Source: Candidatus Poribacteria bacterium WGA-3G (GTDB lineage: Bacteria > Poribacteria > WGA-4E > WGA-3G). From it: 64,000 bases of DNA. Under the pieces are notes generated by a model, which was not told the origin of the DNA, did no database searches, and saw only the letters and a list, made by a program, of their open reading frames with translations. Location: the NCBI GenBank assembly GCA_000406005.1, contig ASZN01000007.1, positions 937 to 64,936 on the forward strand. Reading direction: 5' to 3'. How positions within the stretch are numbered: position 1 is the stretch's first letter; each line of letters opens with the position of its first letter. A program made the translations under genes and the position numbers. Below are positions 4,456 to 24,732 of this stretch, piece after piece.

Positions 4456-4677
4456 ACTGTCATTTAAAAAATAAACCCTGAACACACAAACCCACCTCCC
4501 TTCTGAACACGCAACCCGCGTATCAACTTTTACCTTGAAAATGAAATACGCCTCTGGTATACTCATGCCAAACTTTGGACAATTTTCAGTCTGTTGCTTG
4601 AAAGCGAGTAAAACCCAATGTATTCCATAGAAACGCCGCATTGCTTCCACAGAGGTTTCCGTGTATGCTTTCAAGAC

Positions 4678-4747
4678 ACATAGCACTCCGCTGGAGTGCA
4701 GGACCGGTTCCCCTGGCTGCTATAGACATATTGCTCCGCTGGAGCAA
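4678..4747. repeat. REP/PATE-like double hairpin (ACATAGCACTCCGCTGGAGTGCA ... TTGCTCCGCTGGAGCAA)
   Basis: Two 7-bp-stem hairpins with identical CCGCTGG centres. The same arrangement recurs at 17664-17733. Confidence 0.7.
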
Positions 4748-4831
4748 ACGTTAATACCTTCTCCGGTTTCCAGATGCAGCAAATATAAACTTGAGAAATC
4801 TACGCTTTGTGCAGATTTTAGTGAAAATTGT

Positions 4832-4860
4832 TTGCATCACTTATCAAATAATGGTATAAT
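4832..4860 (+). promoter_or_regulatory. promoter TTGCAT-17-TGgTATAAT
   Basis: The -10 box ends 7 nt before the ATG at 4868, which implies a leaderless or near-leaderless mRNA for the HD gene. Confidence 0.55.
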
Positions 4861-7835: not shown

Positions 7836-8060
7836 AAAACGCTTGCGTTGGAAACTGATTATAAAATCAAATTGCCTCTTGACTGGGTGAAAGAATTGGG
7901 GTTGGAATCGGGTGTTGTGCTTGAAAGGACAGATGATGGCATCCTAATCCGTCCATCCCTTGCACAAACATGGGACGAGATTTATGCCGAGAAACTCAAA
8001 ATAGGGAATACCTCGGCACTTGACTTGTCCGAGGTGAGTGGTGATGACCTTATCTTTTGA
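7833..8060 (+). CDS. AbrB/SpoVT-type antitoxin (VapB-like)
   Basis: KIKLPLDWVKELGLESGVVLERTDDGILIRP is a swapped-hairpin beta-barrel motif. GGAGGAAAAGG RBS precedes the ATG at 7833. Confidence 0.65.
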   Translation: MKTLALETDYKIKLPLDWVKELGLESGVVLERTDDGILIRPSLAQTWDEIYAEKLKIGNTSALDLSEVSGDDLIF

Positions 8061-8634
8061 TCAATCTGCGCCGCGTGGGCTGGACGCGATGCTGATTGTT
8101 TATTCCCTGCTTGATGACCATCCCGCATCCGCCGCGTGTGAATCGTTTATCCGAGACCACACAAATTGGTTCACAACAACGCTTACGCTGCTTGAAGCAA
8201 AAGCGATTCTCACAAAGGTTTATGCTGTAGATACCAATCTTACCTCACAACAACTTTCCCAATTTTCCGAAGGACCTATTGAGATTGTTGAAGTAGATTT
8301 GCCGATAACCCTTGTTGCAATGTCGATTGCCGACACCTTAGCAATCGACATCACCGATGCAGTTTTGGTGCAAGCAACGCGCACTCGTAATGCCAATATC
8401 CTCGCAACAGATGACCGTAAACTAATACAAGCCTGCCATCAAGTAGATATTACGGTTGAAAACCCAATTGATGTTTCGCTACGGAGGCAAATGGCAAGTT
8501 GGGAATCAGAAAACTTGCCGCAAAAAGGATTGCCCCGCATCCTCAGGCAAATTCATCGCTGGTTGCATCAAAACCATCAACAGGCTGCCGAAGATTTCTG
8601 GTCGCAAACCGGCGGTGGGAGCCACTTACCCTAA
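8038..8634 (+). CDS. PIN-domain ribonuclease (VapC-like) with about 60-aa C-terminal extension
   Basis: Acidic residues sit in LDAMLIVY, LLEAKAIL, ITDAVLVQA and ILATDDRKL. The start overlaps the antitoxin stop by 23 nt. Confidence 0.65.
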   Translation: MVMTLSFDQSAPRGLDAMLIVYSLLDDHPASAACESFIRDHTNWFTTTLTLLEAKAILTKVYAVDTNLTSQQLSQFSEGPIEIVEVDLPITLVAMSIADTLAIDITDAVLVQATRTRNANILATDDRKLIQACHQVDITVENPIDVSLRRQMASWESENLPQKGLPRILRQIHRWLHQNHQQAAEDFWSQTGGGSHLP

Positions 8635-9515: not shown

Positions 9516-10003
9516 TCCTTCTTATTCTGTGTTACCGGTTGTAAAATTCACAAAAGCACCGTGATAAGTACCTCTATTTTAATACACCTATAGGTCTGCG
9601 TCAAGAAAAACCCGCATGCCCAATATCAACATGTCCGGCTCCGTTGCGAGTGAAAAAATAAATTTGCATTTCCGAGTTGAATATGCTATTATATACAATG
9701 TAAATATAAAACAACTTAACAATTTAGAGGATTATACTTTTACAAATAACCATAAGGGTCAATTTTAGCAATAACAACCATCTCGGACCCAGAGCCGGTA
9801 GGTTCGGTTTCCTAACCGAACCGGATTTTACAAAGAAACCTTTTAGTGAAATCTGATAAGATTTTCTCTCATGAAAAATTACAAGAAAATTCGGACTAAA
9901 AATTCGTAACCGATTCTCAGACCCAACGTTTATACTCTCACACATGTGGACATGTATACATGTAGGCATATACGGAAGCGTAAGTAAAATTGAGGTGATT
10001 AAC

Positions 10004-10201
10004 GTGGAAACAACTCGGAAACCGACTACGATGGTGCCGCCATCTCGTCAAGGGAAAAAAACAATTTCGGGACATTTCGATAAGGATGTGCATCGGCAGT
10101 TGAAAGTACTCGCCTTGGAGAAGGATACGAGTATCCAAAACCTATTGAGCCAAGCGTTGAACGCGCTGTTCGAGCGGAACAATATGCCGCCGATCGCGTA
10201 A
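10004..10201 (+). CDS. ribbon-helix-helix (CopG/ParG-like) protein
   Basis: KKTISGHFDKDVHRQLKVLALEKDTSIQNLLSQALNALF fits a beta-strand plus two helices. GAGGTGA RBS precedes the GTG at 10004. Confidence 0.5.
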   Translation: METTRKPTTMVPPSRQGKKTISGHFDKDVHRQLKVLALEKDTSIQNLLSQALNALFERNNMPPIA

Positions 10202-10614: not shown

Positions 10615-11844
10615 CTATACAATAGACGAACGCGCTTGTATTATTGCCCACGCGAATGTGCTATCAATCTCAAATTTCGGTTCTGGGTGCCCTGACTCCG
10701 CCAATAACCTTCTCGCGATTGGTATACCCATACCAAAACGCTGTACAAAACCGAAAGTGCGCATCGCATCCGCTAAATTAGGGTTGCGATAATCAACATA
10801 CCCCGGCTCACCAAAATTTTCAGCCGTTACCGTACCAAATACACCACCAGGGCTCAAAACTTCAATCCGGTCATTATACCAATAAACACGAACCGGTGCA
10901 TTCGTCGCTTCGTAAGCCCGGTGCATAATTGCGTTTCGGGTAATCTGTTGCACCGCTTCTATCGGGTAAAGTGCCGTCCGCTTTTCGATAGGACCAGATG
11001 TAATGTCAACCGCAATACGATTATGTGCTATTAATTTATCGTCTAAGCGGCGGATCTGATCCGGAATCGCGCCACGGATAGCCAGACTGTCAATAATATC
11101 ATCCGTAAGTTCATTCCCATCAATTCTGAGGAATTGTATATAAGCACCCGGCAGAAAGTCTTGCGGATTCTTTCCAATCGTGAGGATTCCAAGTACAGTA
11201 GCAGTCGCATCATCAACAGCAGTAATCATTTTCGTTGCTGCGAGTTGCTCCTCCAAACTCCGATCATTGGCTTCCAGGACCTCCTCAGAAAAGGCTTTAG
11301 GTAGATAGTCATAACTGAATAGCGCGAGATTAAGGTCTGAAAGGCCTGCCCTCGAAATCGGGTACAAATCAAAGGGTCGATCCCCATATCGTCGTTTTTC
11401 GTTGAGCATCCGTTCATCTTGTGCCGTTGCAATACCTCGACGTGGGCCTATTCGGATATGAATCGCGCCTCTGCATCGGACCGGCGGCGAATTGGAGGGT
11501 TGCACTGCGACGACAGCAATTTCATTGCCGTGCAGTATCCGCCTTTCCACTGTTAATGATGGCGGGGGCAGGATATTCCCATCCGTCTTCATGTCCGCCA
11601 ATTGACGGAGCAATTCATCTGTGATTGGTGTAGTGCCGAGAGTTGCATTGTCTCTGACTCCGAAAAAAATAAGTCCGACTTCCCCACGGTCGCGTAGATC
11701 GTTGGCAAAAGCACAAATCGCCTCTCGAACCTTTTCTGGAGCACTACCAGACAGGGACTCTTTGAACTCAACAGCGTCAGATTCCCCAGTTTTAATGATT
11801 TGCAGTAGTTCTTCGTCTGTTAAATTCGACATCAGAATATCCAC
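10615..11844 (-). CDS. AlbA_2 (Schlafen-like) plus HATPase_c_4 domain protein (annotated in databases as putative transcriptional regulator / RecG-like)
   Basis: TGESDAVEFKESL...EAICAFANDL...GLIFFGV forms the AlbA_2 core. The C-terminal half has RNAIMHRAYE...GFVQRFGMGI. Confidence 0.65.
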   Translation of the reverse strand: MDILMSNLTDEELLQIIKTGESDAVEFKESLSGSAPEKVREAICAFANDLRDRGEVGLIFFGVRDNATLGTTPITDELLRQLADMKTDGNILPPPSLTVERRILHGNEIAVVAVQPSNSPPVRCRGAIHIRIGPRRGIATAQDERMLNEKRRYGDRPFDLYPISRAGLSDLNLALFSYDYLPKAFSEEVLEANDRSLEEQLAATKMITAVDDATATVLGILTIGKNPQDFLPGAYIQFLRIDGNELTDDIIDSLAIRGAIPDQIRRLDDKLIAHNRIAVDITSGPIEKRTALYPIEAVQQITRNAIMHRAYEATNAPVRVYWYNDRIEVLSPGGVFGTVTAENFGEPGYVDYRNPNLADAMRTFGFVQRFGMGIPIARRLLAESGHPEPKFEIDSTFAWAIIQARSSIV

Positions 11845-11937: not shown

Positions 11938-13638
11938 TCAATACAGCACATGCACCCGATTCTTTCCGCGCACCGTCTCATCTGGCAACACTATCGGCAC
12001 TTCAACGACAACAATGATCGCGCCATCCGCACTCATCGCAAGCGTATCATAAGGCAGTTGTCCCTCTGTACGGTAGGTGTACAGATATTTCGATAAGCCG
12101 CTGCCGTCTGCTGTCAAATCAAATACCGACACACCGTGAAGACTCTCGTTCGGATCTTGTGTACGCTTAGAGACAGACAACACAGCGTAGCGATCCTTCA
12201 CATCAACGCGTAAACCTTGCGGCATATTCTCAAGCTGCCACTGCCAGATTTTCTCACCCGACCACGAATAGGCGAACAGCGTCATCCCATTCGGATGTGC
12301 TGCCGAAGGGCGTTGCGCACCTTTTCGGAGATGATATGGGATGTAGGTGTCTCCAGTGACGAAGAGAGCGGCTGCGTCTGTCGCCCCAATCGTACCAGAA
12401 GTCGCCACAATCGGAATACCACTCACCTCCAGAGGGGTCGTCAAGTTTTCCTGCCATATCGGTTCGGGACTATCAACGTCAAAGATAAATGCACGTCCGT
12501 CGTCTGTTGTTACATTGATGAATTTGCCGTCGGGAGACATGCTAACCCCACGCCAAAACGTGACCTGTGGAAAATACGCGCGCAGCGGTTCAATATCCGC
12601 ATGCCACTTTTCTGTCCCGTCTGCTGTGTTAAGAACAACGAGTTTTCCATTACCGGCACCGTTTTCATCGGTCGGACTCCCTTGTAAGTTATGTCCACTG
12701 TCTGTCACGATCCCAAGCGTCTTCCCATCGGCACTTACGTCAAACCAGCGTATTATCTTTGAAGTCGCACTGTCGCGGGGCCATTTCCAAATAACATCCC
12801 CCGTTTCGCTGTCAAACCTATAGAGTTGCGACATCTTACGGGGTGTATCGTTTTCTGTCCATGAATGCACGCTTGCGACCAAAAGATCGCCGTTAGCCAG
12901 CGTTCGCATACACACTGGACCGGGATAACTGACCCACGCGTAAACACTGTCCGGATCGCTCGGTGTAGAGGTTTCGATGTCATCAGCAGTACGATACTTC
13001 CAACGGAGCGTCGGCTTCTCGGTTGCGAGATCGTAGCAATAGATAAATCCGTCAGCCGCCTGCTCCCCAACATAGAGCAGCGTACCATCGGGATTAAACG
13101 CCATCCGTCTCACATATCCTTCTGAGATACGCGTTTTCCAAAGTGTCTCACCCGTGATTGGTTGGAGCACAGCAAGATGTCCACTGTCCGTCGCAACCGC
13201 CAATCTTTCAGTATTAGGGGCGTTGCCGTGTCCTAAAGCAACCGCAGTCGGTTTCGCAGGGCGCCGGAGGTTTTCCATCAGCGACAAAAGCCCGTCTAAT
13301 TCAACCGTGCGGATGAGATACGACACCGGCTTTAGCGGCGCAGTCGCCGTTTTCACGCGATCATTCAAGCGAAACTGATAACCTTGGTTCGGTTGCCATC
13401 TGAATCGCAATAGGACACGATTCGTATCAAGGCGTTGAGTCGTCAATCCTTCGGCTAATTCGCGCGCTGTGTCGTCAGACACAGCGGTAACACCGATGTC
13501 GTCCGAGAGACCGTCTTTGTGTTCGGTTTCAACAACGACACCTGTCCGAACCCAAGTGACACTCACATCGGCTGTTGCAATACCGATAGAGAAAATGAAA
13601 AGTAAGCAGAGAAAATGAAAAATTTGAATTCGCTTCAT
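11938..13638 (-). CDS. secreted beta-propeller-like protein (PQQ/WD40-like repeats), third gene of the B12-riboswitch operon
   Basis: The internal start MKRIQIFHFLCLLFIFSIGIATA at 13638 gives a signal peptide and removes the overlap with the upstream gene. Repeated DG..LY/W..W blade-like segments follow. Confidence 0.6.
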   Translation of the reverse strand: MKRIQIFHFLCLLFIFSIGIATADVSVTWVRTGVVVETEHKDGLSDDIGVTAVSDDTARELAEGLTTQRLDTNRVLLRFRWQPNQGYQFRLNDRVKTATAPLKPVSYLIRTVELDGLLSLMENLRRPAKPTAVALGHGNAPNTERLAVATDSGHLAVLQPITGETLWKTRISEGYVRRMAFNPDGTLLYVGEQAADGFIYCYDLATEKPTLRWKYRTADDIETSTPSDPDSVYAWVSYPGPVCMRTLANGDLLVASVHSWTENDTPRKMSQLYRFDSETGDVIWKWPRDSATSKIIRWFDVSADGKTLGIVTDSGHNLQGSPTDENGAGNGKLVVLNTADGTEKWHADIEPLRAYFPQVTFWRGVSMSPDGKFINVTTDDGRAFIFDVDSPEPIWQENLTTPLEVSGIPIVATSGTIGATDAAALFVTGDTYIPYHLRKGAQRPSAAHPNGMTLFAYSWSGEKIWQWQLENMPQGLRVDVKDRYAVLSVSKRTQDPNESLHGVSVFDLTADGSGLSKYLYTYRTEGQLPYDTLAMSADGAIIVVVEVPIVLPDETVRGKNRVHVLY

Positions 13639-13715
13639 GTTGTGTTTCCTTGTGTTGTCTGAATGCTTTTTCTGCGTGAGTGAAAAACCGCACCTACGGA
13701 CCCGACAGCCATAAC

Positions 13716-15722
13716 TTAATCCGCCACGCGCCAGAGTCCGCGTCCTAACCTCGCACCGAGAAGTACACCGATAAATGTGTAGGCGAACCCCTCTACTAAG
13801 ATTCGGAGGACAATATACCAATCGGCGTAGAAAAGTCGATAGAATAGCATAGAGAGTTGAAAATCGACATAGACAGCGATCGCGTCGCAGACCCCCAACA
13901 CGACGGCCCATGCCAATATGTTCCGTCCGCGCACAAACAGAAATCCCGTTTCCAATAAGAGGACACTCGTACCGGTATAGACAATCGCCATCGGTGTAAA
14001 GAGCCCGAACGTAACGCCGCTCAGCAGCAACCGCACCGCCGAGACGAGTAAAATCACACCGCTTCCGTTGCTTTGCCGCTTCGCATTCACATATTCAAGC
14101 GTCGCAGCGTCCGTGTTCTGCCTGCCTTGGTAGGTGTGCCTTGTAAGCGTGCCTGCCGTCCTTTTAGGATCCCCGCTAATATAAATTAACAACGCCGTCA
14201 ACAAGGCGTAGTAGAGGGTCTCATTTATCAAACCCGTTAGGAGCACAGAAATCGGACCGAGAACTGCGCGGATTAAGTTGAGAAACAACGTTGATGGGAC
14301 CATCACCCCCACGAAAATCGTCGCGCCGAATAACGCGATAACAATGATCTGTTTCGTTGTGAATCCCGCAAAAATTCGCTTGTGAAACCGCAAGACAACT
14401 GCAAAGCCGATACTACTGCAAATTATCGCCAGTAGACTGATAAGCAGTGCTTGCTGATTTGGAACAATTAGGTGCAACGGTCGCTTTTCGCGAAGGACGG
14501 TTGCATCGCTGCCCCAGACTTTCACCGTAATGTCACGCTGATACACTCCAGGGATCGCCTGTTCCGGCTTCCCTTGCCTGATATACATCGGGTGAAAATA
14601 GACAGGAAGTGGAATTTCTGTAACCACACCTGCTGGAAGGCTTGCAAATGCCACACTCTGATTTATGCCGCCGTTCGCTGTCTCTGGAGGCGCGAGAAAC
14701 GGAATCGTTTCGCCGCTATTTATATCTATATTGCTCGACGATACGACCACATGAATCGTCGCTGCACTATCATTGCGGAGACGCACTGTCTGATAAGTTG
14801 TCGGCTCGAAGGCGTTGGTCTGCGCTGTTCCGAACCCTCTAAAAAATGGACGCGCATAGTGGATAGTATTCGCTCGCTGCCTCGAATCCGCTGCACCTAT
14901 CGCATCCGTAGGCATCACAATCGATTCGATGGAGAGGCGTTCAGCAATCTCTGGAATTGTCGCCATCTGCAGTGCCACCTTCGCCTGCTGCTCCCATACC
15001 TGACCACTGTCTGCCGTAAAACGGACAGTCCCAGAAATTTCTTGTCCATCTGTCTGATTTTCCTCAGATGTTCTCAAAACTAACTCACGGTACCAGACCT
15101 CCGATGCGACTTTAAATCTATCAGTGGTGGAGAGGCAAGTTTCGGTCCCGATTGTCTCACTTCTCCAGTCCTCTGGTAACCGAACGATTGTCAATGTAGA
15201 GGGAAGACAGAGTTGGAAATCAAAGGTCGCTGCCACATTCCCGTTTCTAACAAGGACAGTGGCTGTCATTTCACTTTCTTTCAAAACGAGTGCCTTCTGA
15301 CTGCTTCCGAACGTCTGCCCTGTATCCGCTTGTGGTGCAGTCCCATAAGGAATCGCGATTTCTAAGCTCCCTTGTGCATACGAACGCGGGGCGGTTACAA
15401 TTTGACTATCAACACCTCCCGTTACCAGAGTCGCCTCAAATCTGTAGGTTTCCCCCTCGCGCCATTCAAAGTAGAGCGGTTCTATCTGTCGCGGTGGTGT
15501 CGGAAAGTTGAGTTGCGCGACCCTCACACCGTCTTCATTAAAGGCGTTCAGACGCTGTACCGGCGACGCTTCACCGAACCGCACCTTCGCACCCAACGAA
15601 AAGAACGCCACCTCCCATGATAACGTCTCTTCTTCAGGCGTTGAGGCACAACTGACAAGGAAAATGAGCAGTACCAGGTACCAGAGAGACTTCTTTATTA
15701 TGGATTGATCTAAAGCGTCCAT
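13716..15722 (-). CDS. lipoprotein-like extracytoplasmic domain fused to about 6-TM C-terminal membrane domain, unknown function
   Basis: Lipobox LIFLVSC follows the start at 15722. About 450 aa are soluble. Hydrophobic helices then run from LLISLLAIICSSIGFAVVL to the C-terminus. Confidence 0.55.
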   Translation of the reverse strand: MDALDQSIIKKSLWYLVLLIFLVSCASTPEEETLSWEVAFFSLGAKVRFGEASPVQRLNAFNEDGVRVAQLNFPTPPRQIEPLYFEWREGETYRFEATLVTGGVDSQIVTAPRSYAQGSLEIAIPYGTAPQADTGQTFGSSQKALVLKESEMTATVLVRNGNVAATFDFQLCLPSTLTIVRLPEDWRSETIGTETCLSTTDRFKVASEVWYRELVLRTSEENQTDGQEISGTVRFTADSGQVWEQQAKVALQMATIPEIAERLSIESIVMPTDAIGAADSRQRANTIHYARPFFRGFGTAQTNAFEPTTYQTVRLRNDSAATIHVVVSSSNIDINSGETIPFLAPPETANGGINQSVAFASLPAGVVTEIPLPVYFHPMYIRQGKPEQAIPGVYQRDITVKVWGSDATVLREKRPLHLIVPNQQALLISLLAIICSSIGFAVVLRFHKRIFAGFTTKQIIVIALFGATIFVGVMVPSTLFLNLIRAVLGPISVLLTGLINETLYYALLTALLIYISGDPKRTAGTLTRHTYQGRQNTDAATLEYVNAKRQSNGSGVILLVSAVRLLLSGVTFGLFTPMAIVYTGTSVLLLETGFLFVRGRNILAWAVVLGVCDAIAVYVDFQLSMLFYRLFYADWYIVLRILVEGFAYTFIGVLLGARLGRGLWRVAD

Positions 15723-15794
15723 GATATGAATCTCCATATCAGTACCGATGTCACTGCCCATTTTCTTCGATAGTAATTTTAAAAATTGCCAGTA

Positions 15795-15825
15795 GTGAAT
15801 GAAAGGCGCGGTTCCGAACCGCGCC
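15795..15825 (-). terminator. intercistronic GC-rich hairpin (GGCGCGGTT/AACCGCGCC) followed by TTTCATT
   Basis: 9-bp stem directly after the stop of gene 1 (15839). It may act as a partial terminator or an mRNA stabiliser. Confidence 0.45.
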
Positions 15826-15838
15826 AATGATTCCTAAA

Positions 15839-17182
15839 TTACAACGCCTGACCAATCAGCACCAGATCAAGGATATTGACGACTTCGTCACCATTAACAT
15901 CCGCGACGATGCCAGCACCCTGATCACCCAAGAACCGAGCCGCGATGACCAGATCCAAAATATTGACAACGCCATCGTTGTTTATATCTTCGCGGCGTGA
16001 GATAACTCGTGCAAACGCAAGGATAGAGGCACCCGGACCAACATGATATGTTTGCAGGAGAGACGCATCCATGACATCCATGACACGAACGTAATCCTGT
16101 CCGCCGCCTCCCCAGTCGGGTTGCGTGATATACAGATTTCCGTCCGGCGCGAAGGTCAAACCACCACCGATAGGCGCATCCGCATCGTTACTGAAGTTAG
16201 CAATCGTATCATCTTCGTCGCGAATCCAGTCTTCTGCTACGATATCGTAGATAAGCAAACCCGGTTTTTGCCAGCTGCCTTGCATGAACAGCTGCTTTTC
16301 AGAATTAAGAGCGGCGGCGCCAGGCGCGAATCCGAGCTCAACCGTTTCGGCAATCTCATCAGTAGTCGCGTCAATCACGACGATATGTCCAAGGACATCG
16401 TCGTAATTGCCTATCGTTTTGACGATAACGGACGATTCACTGTCGTTGAAGATTTCACTCGCGTTCGTCGGCACCGGAATAGATTTCAGCACCGTGTCTG
16501 TCGCTGTATCAATGACTGTGACACTGCTCTGGTAATAGTCAGTTTTACCTGCTTCTGGGTCCCATTCCCATGCAGGGTTTGATACGTAGACTTTGCCGTT
16601 GAGGAGCGTAATACCCGTCGGTTTGTTGAAAAAACCGGTGATGATCTTCGTTACATTACGATTCGGAATGTTAACGACATGCACCTCGTATGCCGCTGCA
16701 CAGGTAACGTAGGCTTTCTCATCGTTGATAAAAACGATCTGCTGAGGGGTCGCGCCTTCTTGAATCGGAATTTCACCAACGATCTCTCGGTCCTCCAAAT
16801 TGACAATAAAAATGCTATCACCATCACTCGGGGCACCCGTAACAGGTAAATTAAAAGTCGGAATATACGCGAGATGTCCTCGAACCGAAAGACCGACTGC
16901 CCGCCTCCGCTGAAGCACTTGGCTGCTAAAATGGAGTATCTCGTTGTCTACAGCCCGATTTTCATTCGGCTCCATCAGATCGATGATTGAAAGCGATGCC
17001 GTAATGCCCAAATCGGGATCTGTCAAGGCGTTTATGACAACCGCAAGGTCTTGAACCTCTGTCTGTCCAAAGGATGGACTCAGGAGGCGCGTAAACAGAA
17101 GCGCGCTTATGAGTAGGAATGTGGGTAGTTTGAGAAACGATGTAGACGAGAAGTGCCGCCGAAAGGAAAAAACTTTGTTCAT
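15839..17182 (-). CDS. secreted beta-propeller-like protein with C-terminal dockerin-type repeat pair, first gene after the B12 riboswitch
   Basis: Signal-like N-terminus, YVTN/YncE-like segments (VYVSNP, VTVIDTATD, IVVIDATTD), and C-terminal DINNDGVVNILDLV / DVNGDEVVNILDLV. Confidence 0.6.
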   Translation of the reverse strand: MNKVFSFRRHFSSTSFLKLPTFLLISALLFTRLLSPSFGQTEVQDLAVVINALTDPDLGITASLSIIDLMEPNENRAVDNEILHFSSQVLQRRRAVGLSVRGHLAYIPTFNLPVTGAPSDGDSIFIVNLEDREIVGEIPIQEGATPQQIVFINDEKAYVTCAAAYEVHVVNIPNRNVTKIITGFFNKPTGITLLNGKVYVSNPAWEWDPEAGKTDYYQSSVTVIDTATDTVLKSIPVPTNASEIFNDSESSVIVKTIGNYDDVLGHIVVIDATTDEIAETVELGFAPGAAALNSEKQLFMQGSWQKPGLLIYDIVAEDWIRDEDDTIANFSNDADAPIGGGLTFAPDGNLYITQPDWGGGGQDYVRVMDVMDASLLQTYHVGPGASILAFARVISRREDINNDGVVNILDLVIAARFLGDQGAGIVADVNGDEVVNILDLVLIGQAL

Positions 17183-17235
17183 ACTTTTTAATAAAATGTT
17201 TCGGCTTGCGAGCTTCGCCGAAACCCTCCGTAATG

Positions 17236-17272
17236 AAACAAGAAACCCCTGCTCTCGTAGAGAAGACAGGGG
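17236..17272 (-). terminator. riboswitch expression-platform terminator
   Basis: Minus strand reads CCCCUGUCUUCUCUACGAGAGCAGGGG followed by UUUCUUGUUU. Confidence 0.6.
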
Positions 17273-17387
17273 ACAAGGCGACGCTTTTATATGAGGTTTA
17301 TTCTTACTCTCACGTTGTGATTAAAAATCACGTTTACCGCGCTTCGTTCCACCGCTTTCCCGCGAAAGCAGATGCGTGAAACACAAT

Positions 17388-17545
17388 CCAGGCAGGTCTC
17401 CTGACTTCCGATCTTGCGTCCGTTGAACCTTCCCATCAATGAATTGACAGTGGCGTTTTCAGCGGGTATTTACGATCGTTCACAGTGGCGGGGCCGTGGC
17501 GGATTCTTACCGCGCTTCCCTATTCTCCGTAATGGCACCTGAACC
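17388..17545 (-). promoter_or_regulatory. cobalamin (B12) riboswitch
   Basis: Minus strand reads GGUGCC..AGGGAAGCGCGGUAAGAAUCCGCCACGGCCCCGCCACUGU..GCCACUG..GGGAAGG..AAGUCAGGAGACCUGCC (B12 box at 17391-17406). Confidence 0.85.
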
Positions 17546-17573
17546 GTTAATCTATTCAATTGTTAATGTCTAT

Positions 17574-17602
17574 ATTATATCATATAGGAACATTTTTTGC
17601 AA
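17574..17602 (-). promoter_or_regulatory. promoter TTGCAA-17-TATAAT for the riboswitch operon
   Basis: On the minus strand TTGCAA is at 17602-17597 and TATAAT at 17579-17574, with an exact 17-nt spacer. Confidence 0.6.
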
Positions 17603-17663: not shown

Positions 17664-17832
17664 ACATAGCACTCCGCTGGAGTGCAAGAAGGCGCAACGG
17701 CTTTTCTATAGATATGTTGCTCCGCTGGAGCAAAGAGGTATCTTTAGACATAAAGACTTCTTCACGCCAGAGGCGTGATATATCTATAGAAATCAAGATT
17801 GTTCGCAGCTGCACTCCAGCGGAGTGCTATGT
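17664..17832. repeat. MITE/REP-like element with 23-nt terminal inverted repeats ACATAGCACTCCGCTGGAGTGCA / TGCACTCCAGCGGAGTGCTATGT
   Basis: The left 70 nt are collinear with 4678-4747. An internal hairpin TTGCTCCGCTGGAGCAA lies at 17717-17733. Confidence 0.7.
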
Positions 17833-18019: not shown

Positions 18020-21000
18020 ATGACAACCCAATGGAACAAAGACGAAACTAGGAATCGTGTTCTCACTGAAAACACGGCACAAGCCGTTTCCAAGTATCTG
18101 ACCGATCAGGAGTCGAATCGTGCAACGTGGCAAAATCGATGGATATGGGAACTTTTACAGAATGCGCGTGATGCTTCAAAAACAAGCACTAACCGCCTCA
18201 TCGTAAAAATTCAATACAATTCGGAAGAACTCGTCTTTTTACACAACGGAGGCGGATTCACACCTGAACAGATAACCCATCTCATTTATCACGGATCAAC
18301 GAAAGTTGAGGATGAAGAAACAATAGGAAAATACGGCAGCGGCTTTTTGACAACACACCTGTTGTCTCCAGAAGTGGTTATCTCGGGTCAGCTCCACAAT
18401 GGTCAATGGTTTGACTTCCCTTTGGTACGTAAACTACGTAAACCTGATTCAGTAACTGCACTTCGTGAGTCAATGGACGAAGCCTGGGAAAATTTCAGTC
18501 CATCTATAGCACCGCAAGTCCCAATGCCGGAAGGCTTTACCACTCGATTCGTATATCCAATCAAGGAAGATAACGCGGCGAATGCAGTGAAGAGTGGAAT
18601 TGCAACGCTGAAACAATGCGCGCCGTACGTAGTTGTCTTCAATCAGGAATTCTCCAGCATCAACATTGAAGACCATCACGAAACTATTTGTTTTGAAGCC
18701 ATTGAACCTTTGCAGATGGAGGTCTCAGAAATCCAGCAAATCATAGTGACAGAAAAAACGAATGGAAATAATACAGAAATGAAATATCTTCTGGCACAAG
18801 GTGAAAAGGCTTCTGTCACAGTTCCTCTAACATCAAGTGACAACAGTTTAGTATGTCTACCAATTGAGAATATACCAAGACTCTTTTTGGGTTTTCCTTT
18901 GGTGGGCACCGAAGACTTCAGCTTTCCCGCTGTTATCCATAGCTTAGATTTTACGCCAACGGAGAACCGCAATGGTGTGTATCTTTGGCAAAGCGACAAC
19001 GAAGCAAACCGTAACAATCAAGCTGTGATTGAAGAAGCCTGCGCTTTGCTTGTTAGGATCTTAGCGTTTGTGGCAAAGTCTGGTTGGTGTAATGTGCATC
19101 GATTAGTGGAAATTCCTCCTATCCAAGAAAAGGATTGGCTGAAGAATATAGAACAGCTTAGGAACTGTCTAAAATCAAAATTCATTGACGAAATCTGTCC
19201 AACACCTGCGGTTATTACTGCTGTTGGAACTCTCTTAGCCCCCCAAAATGCTATATTTCTTCAAGCGAAAAGTGAGGCAGACATAGAGACTTTGTGGAAA
19301 TTATTGGAGAGCCTTGAGGAAAAACGTGAGCAATTGCCTAAACAAGATGAAGCAATAGGATGGTGTCGCGCCATTCAGAGCTGGACAAATGTATCTGAAC
19401 ACGTCCGACCAATGTTAAGGAATGGTGGGAGCCTGGCATCGTTTGTAGAAGAAAAGAGTAAATATACCCAAGGGCACAACGCAGGATGGGGCCATCTTGA
19501 GAATCTGCAGAAATTGCTCCGTCCAGATGTTTGTGCTGTCGAATGGTTGAATCAATTCTATCAATTTCTGATAGACAACGGATTTGATAATGAAATTCGT
19601 ACCCGTCGCTTTGTTCCTGATCAAGTGGGCTTTTTTCGTCAACTGAATGAGACATCCCGTGATACGGACATAGACGAAGACCTGAAAAACGTTGCCGAGT
19701 TGTTGGGGGACTTTATCCGGCAGAGGCTACGGGATACCCGCCTTACTCCCTTAGTTCAAGAAGTCGGCGCGGGAAATATGAATAACGAATCTGTTGTTTC
19801 GGATATTATTAGCCGGATCCGAAAACGTGCCGACGAGAAGCCAGACGACTCCTTCAAGGAAGCAAGTGGCCGCCTATTCGCGTGGATAGTTAATAGAGAA
19901 GCCTACTTCCACTTACTAAATTTTCCTGTGTTTGTGGAAGATGGTAAATCTGGCAGTCCTCTTGTGTTTTACCTACCGAATGCTACACATAATACCCCTT
20001 TCTCGTCGTTGCTGTTGGCACCCGTTCGCGCATGGCCGGAAGACTTGCAACCGTTCAAAGATCTTTTTCCGCCGAACAGCATCTTGGCAGATGCGTTTTT
20101 TGAAGCAGCGTCTAACCGAGACACATGGCAAATCCTCAGTGATCAACGACTTGTTAATATGGCAATCCGGTACCGGTACACGGATAAAAAACAAGTGAAT
20201 CTCAAAGAGTTTTCTCCAGATGTAGATCGTGATGAAGGTACCCACATTGCTTTTGTTGACCGCGTGACAGATGTTGTAAAACGCTCTGAAATTATGAGCA
20301 GAGTCAGTGATAGTCGAGAACGAGCCTTCCTATTCTGGAGATTTCTCACCGAGTGGCTTATTCAAAAAGATGTCCACGCGTTAGAACCTAGAGAAGTAAT
20401 TTGTGAATGCGGAGGAACTCATAAATACTATCCAGAGGCCTGGGTGATGCCGGTGCGAAATAATAGTTGGATTCTATGTGAGGGAAAACGCCGTGTCCGT
20501 GCGACAGCTGAGTCGCTTGCGAGTCTGCTTCGCGATAACGGATGGCAACCGGATTCTCTACATCAGAATCCTGCTGTCGTCAACCTATTGGATGCAATTG
20601 GTGTGACACGGTTTGACTTGATGCGGGAATTTGTAACGGTGGGCAATGAAGAAGCACGTAGAGTGCAAGAGAATGTCCTCACAGAGATAATAGTTAAGGC
20701 TGGAGGTAACTTGAGTCAAATCAGTGCGTTGGTGCAGGACCTGAAAGAGGATGAAAATCTCTTTCAACATCTTGAAGAACGACGGGAACAGAGACGGATC
20801 GTGAGTGAGAACCAACACTTGGGGCAACAAGTCGAAGAATTGGTGAAGACGAACTTGGAGAAAGAAGGTTTCTCAGTTCGTCGTACTGGAACGGGTTCGG
20901 ACTTTGAAATTTCAGATAATACTGATAATATGATAACACTGGATATAGAACGAGATAGCAAAAATTGGTTGGTTGAAGTGAAATCTACGCGAACTCAAAG

Positions 21001-21331
21001 CGTTAATATGACTCTCACGCAAGCAAAAACCGCTGTGGGTAAGGGGGACGAATTCTTACTTTGTATTGTCCCAATAGAACAAGGAAATGGTGAACCAGAT
21101 TTAGAAACTGTGCGAGAGGAAATGAGATTCGTTAAAAATATTGGACTTCGTGTGGCTCCGTTGTGCCAAAATCTCAACGCGTTAGAAGAATTGCAGACTA
21201 ACATCACTAGCGAAACCCTCTCTGGTATCAAATTGTTAATTAAGGCGGGTGTAGCAAGAATTAATGTCAATCATTCTGTATGGGAAACTGAAGGATTCCC
21301 ACTCGAAAATCTCGCTGCACGTCTTAAGTAA
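18020..21331 (+). CDS. GHKL (sacsin/HSP90-like) ATPase with C-terminal restriction-endonuclease-like (DUF3883/NOV-C-like) domain
   Basis: N-box WELLQNARDAS, G1 LHNGGGF and G2 GKYGSGFLTTH at the N-terminus. The C-terminus has GSDFEISD...LDIERDSKNWLVEVKSTR, a D..E.K nuclease-like signature. Confidence 0.65.
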   Translation: MTTQWNKDETRNRVLTENTAQAVSKYLTDQESNRATWQNRWIWELLQNARDASKTSTNRLIVKIQYNSEELVFLHNGGGFTPEQITHLIYHGSTKVEDEETIGKYGSGFLTTHLLSPEVVISGQLHNGQWFDFPLVRKLRKPDSVTALRESMDEAWENFSPSIAPQVPMPEGFTTRFVYPIKEDNAANAVKSGIATLKQCAPYVVVFNQEFSSINIEDHHETICFEAIEPLQMEVSEIQQIIVTEKTNGNNTEMKYLLAQGEKASVTVPLTSSDNSLVCLPIENIPRLFLGFPLVGTEDFSFPAVIHSLDFTPTENRNGVYLWQSDNEANRNNQAVIEEACALLVRILAFVAKSGWCNVHRLVEIPPIQEKDWLKNIEQLRNCLKSKFIDEICPTPAVITAVGTLLAPQNAIFLQAKSEADIETLWKLLESLEEKREQLPKQDEAIGWCRAIQSWTNVSEHVRPMLRNGGSLASFVEEKSKYTQGHNAGWGHLENLQKLLRPDVCAVEWLNQFYQFLIDNGFDNEIRTRRFVPDQVGFFRQLNETSRDTDIDEDLKNVAELLGDFIRQRLRDTRLTPLVQEVGAGNMNNESVVSDIISRIRKRADEKPDDSFKEASGRLFAWIVNREAYFHLLNFPVFVEDGKSGSPLVFYLPNATHNTPFSSLLLAPVRAWPEDLQPFKDLFPPNSILADAFFEAASNRDTWQILSDQRLVNMAIRYRYTDKKQVNLKEFSPDVDRDEGTHIAFVDRVTDVVKRSEIMSRVSDSRERAFLFWRFLTEWLIQKDVHALEPREVICECGGTHKYYPEAWVMPVRNNSWILCEGKRRVRATAESLASLLRDNGWQPDSLHQNPAVVNLLDAIGVTRFDLMREFVTVGNEEARRVQENVLTEIIVKAGGNLSQISALVQDLKEDENLFQHLEERREQRRIVSENQHLGQQVEELVKTNLEKEGFSVRRTGTGSDFEISDNTDNMITLDIERDSKNWLVEVKSTRTQSVNMTLTQAKTAVGKGDEFLLCIVPIEQGNGEPDLETVREEMRFVKNIGLRVAPLCQNLNALEELQTNITSETLSGIKLLIKAGVARINVNHSVWETEGFPLENLAARLK

Positions 21332-22194: not shown

Positions 22195-22340
22195 AAATTT
22201 TATACACTGGATTCCTAAGGTTTAGCTGGCATCTGTTCACCAAATATGTTATGATTAACCTCAAAGAATCCACATCATTCGCGATTCAAACGATCATGAG
22301 GCTTCAGCGGAAAAAAAGTTATCGCTATGGAGAAAAGTTA

Positions 22341-24248
22341 ATGAGCAAACCGTTAAAAGTCTTCATTACCTACGCCCACAAAAATGCGGAAGCAAAGGAC
22401 AAATTGATAACCCACCTTGCTGTCCTGAAGCAAAACGGATTAATTGATGTCTGGCATGACAACGAAATTCTACCGGGAGACAAGTGGCGGGAGGCAATTT
22501 TTAACAATCTTGCCGATTCAGATATTCTGCTCTACCTTACTTGTCCTTACAGTCTTGCTTCTGAAAACTGTAATAAGGAGTTGACTGCTGCGTTACGTCC
22601 AAATATAAGAATAATTCCGATTATCCTTGAACACTGCGATTGGCAAAATCATCAACTCAGCGATTTTCAAGCACTTCCTGAAAAAGGCAAGCCAATCTAC
22701 GATATTAGCGAATGGAACCCTGAGAACAAAGGGTGGATGAGTGTGGTTGAGAGACTCCGAAAAGTGATAGAAAGAATGCAGTCCCAGGCGGATTCATCAT
22801 CTGCTACGTTAGAGAAGGAATTGCGTGCTGAGTTGGCATTCCAACAAGGCAACATTTTTATGATGTTCGGACAACTGGATATGGCAATAGGAGCATACTC
22901 ACATGTAATTGAAATTAATCCGCGCGATGTAGATGCCTACATCAATCGTGGAGCTGCTTATCAAGACAAAAACAACTTTGATTTTGCTATCCAAGATTTC
23001 ACCACTGCTATACAACTAAAACCTGATTATGCAATTGTCTATTACAATTTCGGTGTTATCTATGGTAAAAAAGGCGAGGTTGACAAAGCCATTGAAAACT
23101 ACAATAAGACAATAAAGCTCAATCCTAATTTTGCAGTGGCTTATAGTAATCGTGGCAACGCTTACGCAAATAAAGGTGAAGCAGAGAATGCCATGAAAGA
23201 CTATAATAAAGCGATTAAACTCAATCCATACCTTGCCGAGGTTTATTATAATCGAGGCATTGCTAATGAAGAGAATGGCAAGATTGAACTTGCTGTAAAG
23301 GACTATACCACAGCAATACAACTTAAACATAATTATGCCGCAGCGTATTGCAATCGTGGTGTTGCTTACGGAAAAATAAACAAGAATGACCTTGCTATTA
23401 CCGACTATAGTATGGCGATACAACTTGAACCTGACAAGGCAAAAACATATAATAATCGAGGGAACGCTTACTACAGAAAAGGCGAGATTGATAAAGCCAT
23501 TGAAGACTATAACGAAGCAATAAGCAAGGACCCAGAGTTTACCGATGCTTATAATAGTCGTGGTGTTATTTTTAGTATCAAAGGTGAAGTTGATAGAGCC
23601 ATCAAAGATTATAATAAAGCGATACAGATCAACCCCGATTATGCAAAAGCATATTGCAATCGTGGAAACGCTTATAGTGAAAAAGGCTACCATAACCGTG
23701 TTATTGAAGACTATAGCAGAGCAATTGAGTTAAATCCTAATTTCGCCGAGGCGTATTGCAATCGAGGTCACACTTATGTCTATAAAGGTGAAATTGACAA
23801 AGCCATTGAAGACTATAATACGACAATAAAACTGAGACTAAGTGATCATAAAGCATATAATGGCCGTGGTAATGCTTACCGCTGCAAAGGTGAAATTGAC
23901 AAAGCCATTGAAGACTATAACGCAGCGATAAAATTGAACTCTGATTTTAGCGAAGCCTACAGCAATCGCGGCATCACTCTCAGCATCAAAGGTGAACATG
24001 ACCTTGCTATCCAAGACTTTAGCAAAGTGATACAACTACAACCACAGTCTGCTCACGCCTATTACAATCGAGGCGCGACATGGTTATTTCTAAGAGAATG
24101 GGAGAAAGCTATGGCTGACTTGACTATTGCCCGAGATAGAGGGGTAGATATCACCACTAACTTTCGTAAGACAAGCATTGCCGACTTTGAACGGGCAATC
24201 GGTGTAAAATTACCTTCATTTATCGCTGTAATGCTTACACAACAGTAG
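22341..24248 (+). CDS. TIR-domain protein fused to a long TPR array
   Basis: KVFITYAHKN...WHDNEILPGDKWREAI...DILLYLTCPYSLASENCNKELTAAL is a TIR_2-type domain with a candidate catalytic Glu. More than 10 TPR units of the AY.NRG.AY..KGE.DKAI.DYN.AI.L.P type follow. GGAGA RBS precedes the ATG at 22341. Confidence 0.8.
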   Translation: MSKPLKVFITYAHKNAEAKDKLITHLAVLKQNGLIDVWHDNEILPGDKWREAIFNNLADSDILLYLTCPYSLASENCNKELTAALRPNIRIIPIILEHCDWQNHQLSDFQALPEKGKPIYDISEWNPENKGWMSVVERLRKVIERMQSQADSSSATLEKELRAELAFQQGNIFMMFGQLDMAIGAYSHVIEINPRDVDAYINRGAAYQDKNNFDFAIQDFTTAIQLKPDYAIVYYNFGVIYGKKGEVDKAIENYNKTIKLNPNFAVAYSNRGNAYANKGEAENAMKDYNKAIKLNPYLAEVYYNRGIANEENGKIELAVKDYTTAIQLKHNYAAAYCNRGVAYGKINKNDLAITDYSMAIQLEPDKAKTYNNRGNAYYRKGEIDKAIEDYNEAISKDPEFTDAYNSRGVIFSIKGEVDRAIKDYNKAIQINPDYAKAYCNRGNAYSEKGYHNRVIEDYSRAIELNPNFAEAYCNRGHTYVYKGEIDKAIEDYNTTIKLRLSDHKAYNGRGNAYRCKGEIDKAIEDYNAAIKLNSDFSEAYSNRGITLSIKGEHDLAIQDFSKVIQLQPQSAHAYYNRGATWLFLREWEKAMADLTIARDRGVDITTNFRKTSIADFERAIGVKLPSFIAVMLTQQ

Positions 24249-24267
24249 GACTAAAACCTAAATCCAG

Positions 24268-24732
24268 ATGAAAAAATGGCCCGCCTTTGATAATGATGGT
24301 GACTTACCCGTAGGAATTCATCAAGCAACATTGGCTGAAACTTTACAGCATTTCGGTGCAGGGACCCCGCAAAGAAAACGCGTTGGGCAGCAATTAGAAC
24401 ACATTTTCAAATTGGCAAACAGCACCGGCCAAGTGGCAAGATTTATCGTGTTTGGTTCATTTGTAACAATTAAACCAGCCCCCGGTGACGTAGATATTTT
24501 CTTATTGATGAATGATACGTTTGATGTTGATCAGGTGGATGGTGAAGCTGCTCTCATTTTTGATCATCAAAAAGCACAGAATATTTTAGGAGCAAGCGTT
24601 TTCTGGAGCCGCAAACTTGCAGCAATAGGCGGCGAGCAGGGAGCAGTGGAGTATTGGCAGGTTAAACGCGACAACACACGCCGCGGCATAGTTGAGGTGA
24701 TTAACAATGATTCAGAACAATCAAGAACTTAA
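24268..24732 (+). CDS. minimal nucleotidyltransferase-fold (Pol-beta-like) protein
   Basis: FIVFGSFVTIKPAPGDVDIFLL carries the GS-x(n)-DxD signature. Confidence 0.5.
   Translation: MKKWPAFDNDGDLPVGIHQATLAETLQHFGAGTPQRKRVGQQLEHIFKLANSTGQVARFIVFGSFVTIKPAPGDVDIFLLMNDTFDVDQVDGEAALIFDHQKAQNILGASVFWSRKLAAIGGEQGAVEYWQVKRDNTRRGIVEVINNDSEQSRT

Follow-up and report, generated by a model that had tools for sequence, protein, structure and literature searches.

Which function stands behind a cobalamin riboswitch that heads three genes for envelope proteins is the question raised by the locus of a Poribacteria sponge symbiont studied here. The three genes (g1-g2-g3) form an operon on the minus strand of a 64,000-nt stretch of DNA, hereafter the window, and its features are listed in Table 1. 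All of the elements described in the initial annotation were found at or near the positions given there, and each of the computational checks suggested with it favoured its proposal of a corrinoid-scavenging module, which is supported by the riboswitch linkage, the kinship of gene 1 with BtuG and the ECF context of gene 2. With a probability of roughly 0.6, we consider g1-g2-g3 to be a B12-repressed corrinoid-scavenging operon in which gene 2 contains a new type of S-component.

Table 1. Features of the riboswitch-headed operon (positions in the window)
Feature	Position	Strand	Basis or character
Sigma-70-like promoter TTGCAA-17-TATAAT with TG extended -10	17574..17602	-	Consensus scan
Cobalamin riboswitch aptamer (RF00174), including the B12 box	17374..17557	-	cmscan
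Expression platform: intrinsic terminator hairpin CCCCUG..CAGGGG, then UUUCUUGUUU	17236..17272	-	Sequence read directly
Gene 1, 447 aa, secreted YVTN/DUF5074-type beta-propeller with C-terminal type I dockerin	15839..17182	-	Pfam, PDB matches
GC-rich hairpin GGCGCGGUUCGGAACCGCGCC, then UUUCAUUCAC, in the g1-g2 spacer	15805..15825	-	Terminator-like scan
Gene 2, 668 aa, lipobox signal LVSC, ectodomains, TM0 and 6-helix module	13716..15722	-	Translation, conservation
Gene 2, membrane part	13719..14465	-	S-component-like
Gene 3, 566 aa, secreted PQQ_2/BamB-like beta-propeller	11938..13638	-	Pfam, homology

The riboswitch had been read at 17545-17388 of the minus strand, and the cmscan search bore this out with a match to the whole RF00174 model (1-189) at 101.9 bits, compared with a gathering score of 31.5 (E 2.3e-24). 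The promoter described ahead of it is present as a consensus match only, with 10 of the 12 positions matched, and sits some 17 nt 5' of the aptamer. At the stem and U-run previously regarded as an attenuator, a hairpin followed by a U-run was read; of 80 related Poribacteria loci, 76 have a terminator-like hairpin 3' of the aptamer, and those sampled carry this same element with small changes in the stem. The minimum-free-energy fold pairs GAGACCUGCC, the 3' portion of the aptamer, with the terminator's 3' arm, and this predicted pairing is a possible antiterminator. Binding of coenzyme B12 to the aptamer would let the downstream terminator form and transcription stop before gene 1, and all three genes would be transcribed when B12 is scarce. 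The hairpin in the g1-g2 spacer comprises nine pairs, seven of which are G-C, and may act as a partial terminator or RNA stabiliser setting the g1:g2 ratio.

The gene order g1-g2-g3 was kept in 84 Poribacteria loci. The riboswitch was present upstream in 80 of these, that is, in every locus with upstream DNA available (80/80), as the sequence of the other four ends before the riboswitch region. The linkage is conserved across Poribacteria down to 55% g2 identity, far beyond what chance would give. EcfA, EcfT, TonB-dependent receptors and TonB were absent from all 84 loci and from the 64-kb window, and the Poribacteria operon is one without ECF motor genes.

Gene 1 had been described as a beta-propeller-like protein with a signal peptide and a dockerin, and this description held. 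Its N-terminus is signal-like and lacks a lipobox cysteine; Pfam analysis placed Dockerin_1 at aa 398-446 (about 15845-15991 of the window; 32.1 bits, cutoff 22.9) and gave DUF5074 at 21.6 bits, below its cutoff. Both domains were matched by 29 of 30 g1 orthologues, DUF5074 scores across the family being at or below the Pfam cutoff. BtuG is a surface-exposed B12-binding lipoprotein of Bacteroidota (PDB 3DSM, 8BMX, 8OKV and 8BLW; Wexler 2018, PMC6143338; Abellon-Ruiz 2023, PMC10404256), and the PDB codes of the chains matched by gene 1 identify them as BtuG1, BtuG2 and BtuG3 (PMC10404256). As a single sequence, gene 1 matched BtuG chains at 2.6e-5 to 3e-3, and the g1 family profile matched BtuG1, BtuG3 and BtuG2 with E values of 6e-10 to 5e-6; DUF5074 is also the top Pfam match of a BtuG-type PDB chain. 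Since the profile scored 1L0Q, a generic YVTN S-layer propeller from archaea (1.7e-11), slightly above BtuG, and since DUF5074 stays at or below its cutoff, the kinship is placed at the superfamily level. Judged by its sequence, gene 1 is a remote relative of BtuG, which goes beyond the analogy drawn initially. The two share a propeller of the YVTN/YncE/DUF5074 type, with detectable similarity to BtuG1, BtuG2 and BtuG3, and the secretion of gene 1 and its first place in a B12-riboswitch operon were counted as further likenesses. Unlike BtuG, gene 1 has no lipobox or lipoprotein export signal and no adjacent btuB, carries a C-terminal dockerin instead, and occurs in Poribacteria, whereas BtuG has been reported as exclusive to Bacteroidetes. 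The g1 orthologue in locus L115 also matches, weakly, a C-terminal domain of type IX secretion, a hint that it is displayed at the surface.

Gene 2 probably starts at the ATG at 15722. The lipobox reported for it was confirmed, the extracytoplasmic region put at about 450 aa was revised to about 400 aa, and seven helices were predicted in place of about six, namely a linker helix (TM0) and a six-helix core. The ectodomain is an all-beta, tandem beta-sandwich whose model reached a pLDDT of about 70-85, with Foldseek matches of a generic Ig-like kind. Searches of Pfam, NCBIfam and the PDB with the gene 2 sequence returned no match, none of the known S-component families matches it by sequence, and no description of a widespread membrane transporter subunit of this type was found. 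The membrane module was modelled with confidence (pLDDT 91, pTM 0.87), and its sole Foldseek match above noise was 5EDL, an ECF S-component that we take to be YkoE of YkoEDC (probability 1.00; TM-scores 0.44 and 0.52), the E value of 0.15 being statistically weak; neither of the B12-specific S-components, CbrT and BtuM, appeared in the top 50. TM0 is predicted to run from outside to inside and to be followed by a positively charged loop and the six-helix core, both ends of which would be cytoplasmic, and this predicted topology fits an S-component. The 5EDL match, together with the EcfA-EcfA' and EcfT genes that follow g2 in relatives, agrees with the earlier guess of an S-component-like membrane domain. 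The module has six core helices, as has YkoE; unlike known S-components, gene 2 adds the lipobox signal, the beta-sandwich ectodomains, the extra linker helix and a dedicated propeller partner, gene 3.

Gene 3, with its start at the ATG at 13638, proved to be a second secreted propeller as annotated, with a signal peptide and a PQQ_2 match in Pfam (1.5e-11). It is homologous over its full length to propellers adjoining g2 homologues in loci L085 (2e-57) and L088 (2e-58). Its N-terminal domain (about 95 aa) is homologous to that of gene 2, and the g2 and g3 families were aligned over this domain by hhalign with a probability of 97% (E 6.9e-11).

The neighbourhoods of the g2 family were surveyed in 80 metagenome loci, 61 of which contain a g3-type gene. 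As a rule, genes for a fused EcfA-EcfA' ATPase and for EcfT come after g2 in these loci: both were present in 60 of the 80, and where downstream DNA was available (73 loci), one or the other starts directly after g2 in 61. The double ATPase passed both NCBIfam ECF_ATPase models (about 430 bits; cutoffs 315 and 330). The g2-g3 pair is a widespread module in bacteria and probably archaea; the architecture described initially is not confined to the window. Independent B12 riboswitches precede the g2 family in unrelated lineages (L129, L120, L121, L146, L151 and L152), and those of L120, L129 and L151 lie directly 5' of genes of the corrinoid-uptake type. The riboswitch-led operon of L129 consists of g2, AA, Q and g3 and contains no other membrane protein able to act as an S-component. 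Further neighbours include TonB-dependent receptors in 21 loci, that of L129 having BtuB as its best match, TonB, ExbB and ExbD in about 10, a gene cluster with BtuF-type Peripla_BP_2 in 8, and CbiZ in L088 and L126. Family members from the human gut were named Phascolarctobacterium or Acidaminococcaceae. In passing, no BtuC-type (FecCD) permease was noticed at the g2-family loci.

B12 riboswitches commonly control cobalt transporters, and g2-g3 might be a metal-specific ECF-type importer that takes up cobalt ions, not corrinoids; like CbiMNQO, it would be shut off by B12 because the cell uses cobalt solely to make the vitamin. Cobaltochelatase genes of the CobN type, passing NCBIfam NF004646, lie next to g2 homologues in 40 of the 80 loci, putative cobaltochelatase subunits of the ChlI/ChlD-like type occur in 10, and the top NCBIfam match of the T component is named cobalt T component CbiQ, although it is below the cutoff. 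We nevertheless regard cobalt uptake as unlikely: the BtuB-like receptors, TonB/ExbBD, BtuF-type proteins and CbiZ at the same loci typically accompany importers of chelates or corrinoids and not those of ions, and the Poribacteria operon begins with a BtuG relative. Moreover, CbiM and NikM, which are S-components for metals, coordinate the ion through a free N-terminal Met-His (PMC3945884), whereas the N-terminus of the S-module of gene 2 is tied to TM0 on the cytoplasmic side, and the sequence of gene 2 resembles no known family.

The broader g2-g3/ECF family could also import a different tetrapyrrole or metal chelate (haem, for instance, or a corrin precursor), which a chelatase of the CobN/ChlID type would then process, the Poribacteria version being linked to B12 in a way other than uptake of the finished vitamin (e.g., precursor salvage, remodelling or envelope storage). 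CobN-like proteins are associated with TonB-dependent haem uptake in the Hmu loci of Bacteroidota, the CobN/ChlID neighbours are frequent, and Rfam or nhmmer scans of 33 non-Poribacteria loci showed a riboswitch in only about 8. One riboswitch-free homologue (L138) adjoins a YkoF-like Thiamine_BP gene and a single ABC ATPase, and substrates may for this reason differ between branches of the family. Yet many of the riboswitch-free loci come from digester or fermentation metagenomes, and that branch has its nearest named relatives among the Methanosarcinales, archaea in which bacterial riboswitches are not expected; where riboswitches were found they were of the cobalamin class in every case, and in Poribacteria they are invariant, so that import of another chelate appears improbable. 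That the genes encode three surface or scaffold proteins without a B12 role, carbohydrate-related for example, beside a riboswitch placed there by chance or regulating something else, is scarcely credible, for although dockerins are best known from cellulosomes and the gene 2 ectodomains look like adhesin or Ig-like domains of a generic kind, the riboswitch lies directly upstream on the same strand in all testable Poribacteria loci with a conserved terminator, the neighbours across the family are transport and corrinoid genes, no carbohydrate-active domain was detected in the products of genes 1, 2 and 3, and no relative with such an unrelated function was found.

Under corrinoid scavenging, gene 1 would be a secreted propeller of the seven-bladed type that captures the corrinoid outside the cytoplasm, held in place by its dockerin and not by a lipid anchor. 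The ligand would be received by the Ig-like ectodomains of gene 2, itself anchored in the cytoplasmic membrane, together with gene 3, and the C-terminal 6-helix module would, like an ECF S-component, carry it through the membrane. Most other lineages encode the g2-g3 pair together with an EcfA-EcfA'/EcfT motor of its own; for Poribacteria, the motor may be encoded elsewhere or be unneeded, as reported for solitary S-components such as BtuM.

Group I ECF transporters with a fused double ATPase include YkoEDC, and a B12-regulated system, CbrTUV, has reportedly been predicted as well. Like such group I transporters, most g2 relatives are followed by EcfA-EcfA' and EcfT, but the Poribacteria operon, unlike YkoEDC-type systems, has no motor genes. 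BtuM transports without a dedicated ECF module, and the Poribacteria g2 may work likewise. The job proposed for g2 is that of BtuM and ECF-CbrT, namely transport of cobalamin through the cytoplasmic membrane by a protein of the S-component type; BtuM and CbrT, however, are small, have neither ectodomains nor accessory propellers, and show no sequence similarity to g2. Compared with BtuB-BtuFCD, the inner-membrane step of g2 would be of the ECF type and not that of a type II ABC importer; in L129, L151 and L120, g2-AA-Q-g3 sits where btuFCD usually does, beside a riboswitch-controlled BtuB-like receptor and TonB/ExbBD.

The operon consists of three envelope-protein genes on the minus strand, namely g1 (a secreted propeller with a dockerin), g2 (a lipobox, Ig-like ectodomains and a C-terminal membrane module) and g3 (a secreted PQQ_2/BamB-like propeller). 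The initial annotation had placed them behind a cobalamin riboswitch with its own promoter and attenuator. The cmscan match to RF00174 spans model positions 1-189 and includes the B12 box, which bears out the riboswitch, and both the promoter-like site and a hairpin with a U-run were located. The architectures of the three proteins also stood as first described, except that seven helices, not about six, are predicted for g2. The coordinates of all features are listed in the table.

Features of the operon, its leader RNA and its surroundings (positions within the window)
Feature	Position	Strand	Remark
Promoter-like TTGCAA-17-TATAAT, TG-extended -10	17602-17574	-	just upstream of the aptamer
Cobalamin riboswitch aptamer, complete	17374-17557	-	cmscan RF00174, 101.9 bits vs gathering score 31.5, E 2.3e-24
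Terminator hairpin CCCCUG..CAGGGG, then UUUCUUGUUU	17272-17236	-	read from the sequence, downstream of the aptamer
Second leader hairpin GUUUCGGC..GCCGAAAC, then AUUUUAUU	17198-17224	-	downstream of the conserved terminator and ahead of the g1 start codon; immediately 3' of a GGAGGG stretch
g1	15839-17182	-	first gene after the riboswitch
GC-rich spacer hairpin	15805-15825	-	inside the 116-nt g1-g2 spacer
g2	13716-15722	-	start ATG supported by orthologues
g3	11938-13638	-	third gene
AlbA_2/Schlafen gene	10615-11844		directly downstream of g3
Promoter-like site of the AlbA_2/Schlafen gene	11904-11876		strong
Defence-type genes	25-2817, 4868-6250, 8038-8634, 10615-11844, 18020-21331, 22251-24732		surround the operon
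Palindromic motif CTCCAGCGGAG	4686-4744, 17672-17824		within GCACTCCAGCGGAGTGC hairpins
WD40-repeat-rich protein, 966 aa	28662-31562	+	unrelated to the operon
RRXRR-family protein	50312-51343	+	unrelated to the operon
RpoB, 1902-aa ORF	55989-61697	+	

A terminator-like hairpin follows the aptamer in 76 of the 80 orthologous leaders, and the leaders sampled carry the same CCCCUG..CAGGGG hairpin with a slightly altered stem. When the leader is folded to minimum free energy, the 3' arm of the terminator hairpin is paired with the aptamer's 3' end, a predicted pairing that a transcriptional OFF switch would require. The second leader hairpin could affect translation initiation or serve as a second stop. 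The hairpin in the g1-g2 spacer may raise the message of the binding protein above that of the membrane protein; in some ABC transporter operons the binding-protein message is the more abundant one.

All close relatives of g2 that bear names belong to Poribacteria MAGs. A scan of species-representative genomes yielded 80 Poribacteria loci whose g2 identities range between 55% and 91%, and an exact-protein look-up added four (84 in total). The order g1-g2-g3 is found in all of them except where contigs are truncated and in a few additional copies. Complete Poribacteria chromosomes, such as OX639973.1, OZ251998.1 and OZ241378.1, are among the carriers. The riboswitch was detected by Rfam in 8/8 sampled loci and by an nhmmer profile upstream of the operon in 80/84, the remaining four being cut off upstream, so that the linkage is fixed in the phylum and not a coincidence: it was kept in every locus where the riboswitch-operon association reported initially could be followed (80/80). 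No cob genes, ABC ATPases or EcfT were found within the 64-kb window, and neither ECF motor genes (EcfA, EcfT) nor a TonB-dependent receptor turned up there or around the operon in the 84 Poribacteria loci (up to 6-8 kb either side).

An exhaustive HMMER search recovered 344 g2-related cluster representatives (50% identity clustering), most of which have the same length and layout as g2; a profile built from distant members returned four proteins only when used in a word-indexed search for homologues. Two distant members (L085 and L088, with 30% and 34% identity to g2) sit in ordered clusters composed of a g3-type propeller, the g2 homologue, a fused EcfA-EcfA' double ATPase with CbiQ/EcfT, and CobN, to which L088 adds ChlI/ChlD-like genes and CbiZ. 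Full-length homology of g3 to the propellers of these two clusters was obtained at 2e-57 and 2e-58. A metagenome scan, in which a 7-sequence alignment served as query and locus ORFs were labelled by phmmer, gave 80 further loci of the g2 family. The double ATPase accompanies the g2 homologue in 69 of these 80 loci, EcfT in 61 and both together in 60; a g3-type propeller is present in 61, CobN in 40, a TonB-dependent receptor in 21, and TonB, ExbB and ExbD in about 10 each. Where enough DNA follows g2 (73 loci), the double ATPase or EcfT begins right after it in 61, and 8 loci contain a member of a gene cluster represented by a BtuF-type Peripla_BP_2 protein. Both halves of the family ATPase pass the NCBIfam models for energy-coupling factor transporter ATPases (about 430 bits vs. 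cutoffs of 315 and 330) and the CobN-like neighbours pass that for cobaltochelatase CobN, while the receptor in L129 has the TonB-dependent B12 receptor as its best NCBIfam match, below cutoff.

Cobalamin riboswitches recur outside the Poribacteria set: directly before g2-EcfA-EcfA'-EcfT-g3 in L129, before exbB-exbD-tonB-g2 in L120, before receptor-g2 in L151, and before g2-cluster genes in L121, L146 and L152. The g1-g2-g3 locus L128 is preceded by one too. Many g2-family loci lack the riboswitch, several of these being from digester metagenomes. In L146 two cobalamin riboswitches stand in tandem upstream of the g2 cluster (4325-4843); L129 has two further, divergent riboswitches (9556-10183), one heading a BtuB-like receptor gene and the other a gene beyond the contig end.

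Several branches of the family can be told apart by their gene content. The loci L090-L112 from digester and fermentation metagenomes are very uniform, with two tandem g3-type propellers, CobN, g2, EcfA-EcfA', EcfT and an ABC ATPase plus ABC-2 permease, and they lack a riboswitch. The closest g2 relatives of the branch that carry names (P0271 and P0272) are from Methanosarcinales archaea, and the g2-g3 module is therefore probably present in methanogens too. The full ECF version occurs in human-gut loci (L151, L156, L163, L166 and related ones), which comprise a B12 riboswitch, a TonB-dependent receptor, g2, EcfA-EcfA', EcfT and g3, with ChlI/ChlD and CobN upstream. Named g2 homologues with about 60% identity to the L151 protein (P0306, P0345 and P0361) come from Phascolarctobacterium succinatutens and other Acidaminococcaceae, which are cultured and B12-dependent for their succinate-to-propionate metabolism. 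A marine branch (L138, 6119-9767; L144, 3831-7116) has neither EcfA-EcfA'/EcfT nor a riboswitch and carries one ABC ATPase together with an uncharacterised protein of approximately 235 aa immediately upstream of g2; it may have a different substrate or energising partner.

Since operons of the L129 type encode no other suitable membrane protein, g2 must be the substrate-specific subunit (S-component), provided that the ATPase and EcfT form an ECF transporter. The structural prediction is consistent with this assignment. Using an alignment of 102 diverse family members, AlphaFold modelled the last 249 residues of g2 with a pLDDT of 91 and a pTM of 0.87 as a linker helix (TM0) and six core helices, with positively charged stretches after TM0 and at the protein end; the predicted module thus has S-component topology, i.e. 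a six-helix core with both ends cytoplasmic. An earlier model built on 34 close Poribacteria sequences, with a pLDDT of about 30 in the membrane part, was discarded and no function was read from it. In a Foldseek search of the PDB, the module matched 5EDL ("S-component of ECF transporter") with probability 1.00, TM-scores of 0.44/0.52, 217 aligned columns and an rmsd of 5.7, at an E-value of only 0.15. This was the sole match clear of noise, all others having TM-scores <=0.25, and no other S-component was among the top 50. 5EDL is YkoE, which works in a transporter likewise equipped with a fused double ATPase.

By sequence g2 belongs to none of the described S-component families, with which no link was found. 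Eight diverse membrane modules of the family gave no Pfam match even at E up to 10, the family profile had no PDB sequence match, and g2 itself gave nothing usable against Pfam, NCBIfam and PDB sequences. No similarity to CbiM was found either. In the metal S-components CbiM and NikM the free N-terminal Met-His inserts into the metal site, whereas the N-terminus of the g2 S-module continues from TM0 and the ectodomain. The latter is a string of beta-sandwich domains with uninformative Foldseek matches to generic Ig-like folds (integrin legs, RbmA, pilins). The N-terminal stretch of about 95 residues shares homology with the N-terminal domain found in the g3 family (hhalign probability 97%, E 6.9e-11), and this common domain suggests that g2 and g3 work side by side.

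For g1, a single-sequence search against the PDB returned 8PTF, 8PTD, 8BLW, 8OKV, 8P97, 8BMX and 3DSM at 2.6e-5 to 3e-3. According to the data-availability statement of PMC10404256, 8BLW, 8BMX/8BMY, 8OKV and 8P97/8P98 are structures of BtuG1, BtuG2 and BtuG3, and the same source gives 3DSM as apo-BtuG2. A profile of 30 g1 orthologues matched the BtuG1, BtuG3 and BtuG2 chains at 6e-10 to 5e-6, and the generic archaeal YVTN propeller 1L0Q slightly above them at 1.7e-11. The DUF5074 match of g1 alone is below the Pfam threshold; 29/30 orthologues match this domain with scores at or below the cutoff, and DUF5074 is also the best Pfam match of a fragment of the BtuG-type chain 8PTF. Because of the BtuG chain matches and the DUF5074 common to both, g1 and BtuG are placed on sequence grounds in one propeller superfamily. 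Strictly speaking, however, g1 falls outside the BtuG family: BtuG has a lipobox cysteine with the Bacteroidota lipoprotein export signal and is genetically linked to btuB, whereas the N-terminus of g1 has no cysteine, resembling instead a signal peptidase I signal ending SFG/Q, and g1 has no btuB neighbour. BtuG homologues have been described as exclusive to Bacteroidetes (PMC6143338), and the BtuG2 contact residues are listed in PMC13616437, the g1-BtuG alignment being too remote for mapping them reliably.

The type I dockerin of g1 (Pfam Dockerin_1, aa 398-446, 32.1 bits vs. a cutoff of 22.9) contains two DxNxDGxxxxxD-type repeats and is matched in 29/30 orthologues, and it likely tethers g1 in place of a lipid anchor. 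The orthologue in L115 additionally carries FlgD-Ig and weakly matches a C-terminal domain of type IX secretion, which together with the dockerin suggests that g1 is displayed outside the cell or tethered to the envelope. A paralogous relationship of g1 and g3 was rejected, the two having no BLASTP similarity.

The initial annotation had proposed a candidate non-canonical corrinoid capture and uptake operon. Our most far-reaching reading, with a probability of about 0.4, is that g2-g3 would form a class of ECF-type importers that is widespread yet undescribed and serves corrinoids or related tetrapyrroles (about 344 clusters at 50% identity; bacteria and probably archaea), in which an S-component with its own large extracytoplasmic receptor domain and a dedicated beta-propeller replaces BtuFCD behind BtuB, the Poribacteria version having lost the in-operon motor and gained a dockerin-tethered BtuG relative. 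The analysis itself shows the RNA elements, the conserved gene order, the protein architectures, the ECF motor/BtuB/TonB/CobN/ChlID/CbiZ neighbourhood across the family and the recurrent B12 riboswitches. In the most likely mechanism, transcription would be terminated at high B12; at low B12, the cell would make g1 as capture protein and g2 as membrane receptor-translocator with g3 as its propeller partner, and the three together would carry corrinoids into the cytoplasm. Such a system would work like an ECF-type B12 importer with a BtuG-like front end.

Uptake of cobalt in place of corrinoids is the main rival, because CobN and ChlID are neighbours of g2 homologues and cobalt transporters are often under B12 riboswitch control; however, it fits poorly with the TonB-dependent receptors, BtuF-type proteins and CbiZ of the family, with the BtuG relative g1, and with an S-module whose N-terminus is not free as in CbiM and NikM. 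In parts of the g2 family the substrate may be a different tetrapyrrole, or a precursor on which the chelatase acts, as the differing neighbourhood of L138 and L144 with its single ABC ATPase and the YkoF-like Thiamine_BP gene in L138 would allow. A scaffold role unrelated to B12 is very unlikely because the riboswitch is invariant. Corrinoid import through g2-g3 is directly testable, since the complete set including the ECF motor is present in gut relatives that have a name (Phascolarctobacterium succinatutens).

Neither the riboswitch nor the ECF logic is novel in itself. What is new is the putative S-component with its large lipoprotein-type ectodomain, the propeller dedicated to it, and a BtuG relative that bears a dockerin. 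Literature on the g2/g3 module, on BtuG relatives outside Bacteroidota and on ECF or dockerin systems of Poribacteria was searched for and none was found, which does not prove its absence. Members of microbial communities exchange and compete for B12 and related compounds, for which only a few import routes are known (BtuB with BtuFCD, BtuG/H/J in Bacteroidota, ECF-CbrT and BtuM); ECF transporters are not generally known to have a large outward-facing domain. If our reading is true, there is a further B12 import route with a membrane subunit outside every described family, and its carriers are as far apart as sponge symbionts, Phascolarctobacterium of the human gut and archaea of digesters. 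BtuG-like capture proteins would then not be confined to Bacteroidota, g1 being the first BtuG-type corrinoid capture protein outside that phylum, possibly with a cohesin-dockerin-type link between binding protein and transporter. It would also bear on B12 supply and recycling by dominant sponge symbionts within the holobiont.

Elsewhere in the window lie genes for housekeeping functions (trpEG, panB, sucCD, proS, pgk, fabDFGH, fusA and rpoB) and defence-type genes, the latter comprising an Eco57I-like restriction-modification methylase, an HD-domain protein, a PIN protein, a Schlafen AlbA_2/HATPase_c_4 protein, a sacsin-like ATPase with NOV_C, a TIR-TPR protein and DUF6932. The AlbA_2/Schlafen gene, syntenic in a close relative (L001), was set aside as an operon member, having its own promoter-like site and no transport link. 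RpoB exceeds its E. coli counterpart by about 560 residues and must therefore bear large lineage-specific insertions. The WD40-repeat-rich protein has a weak phmmer match to g3 through common propeller repeats only. The motif CTCCAGCGGAG has 5 intergenic copies vs. 0.02 expected by chance, three of them in the DNA separating the riboswitch promoter from the divergent sacsin-like gene, and looks like a REP-type repeated extragenic element.
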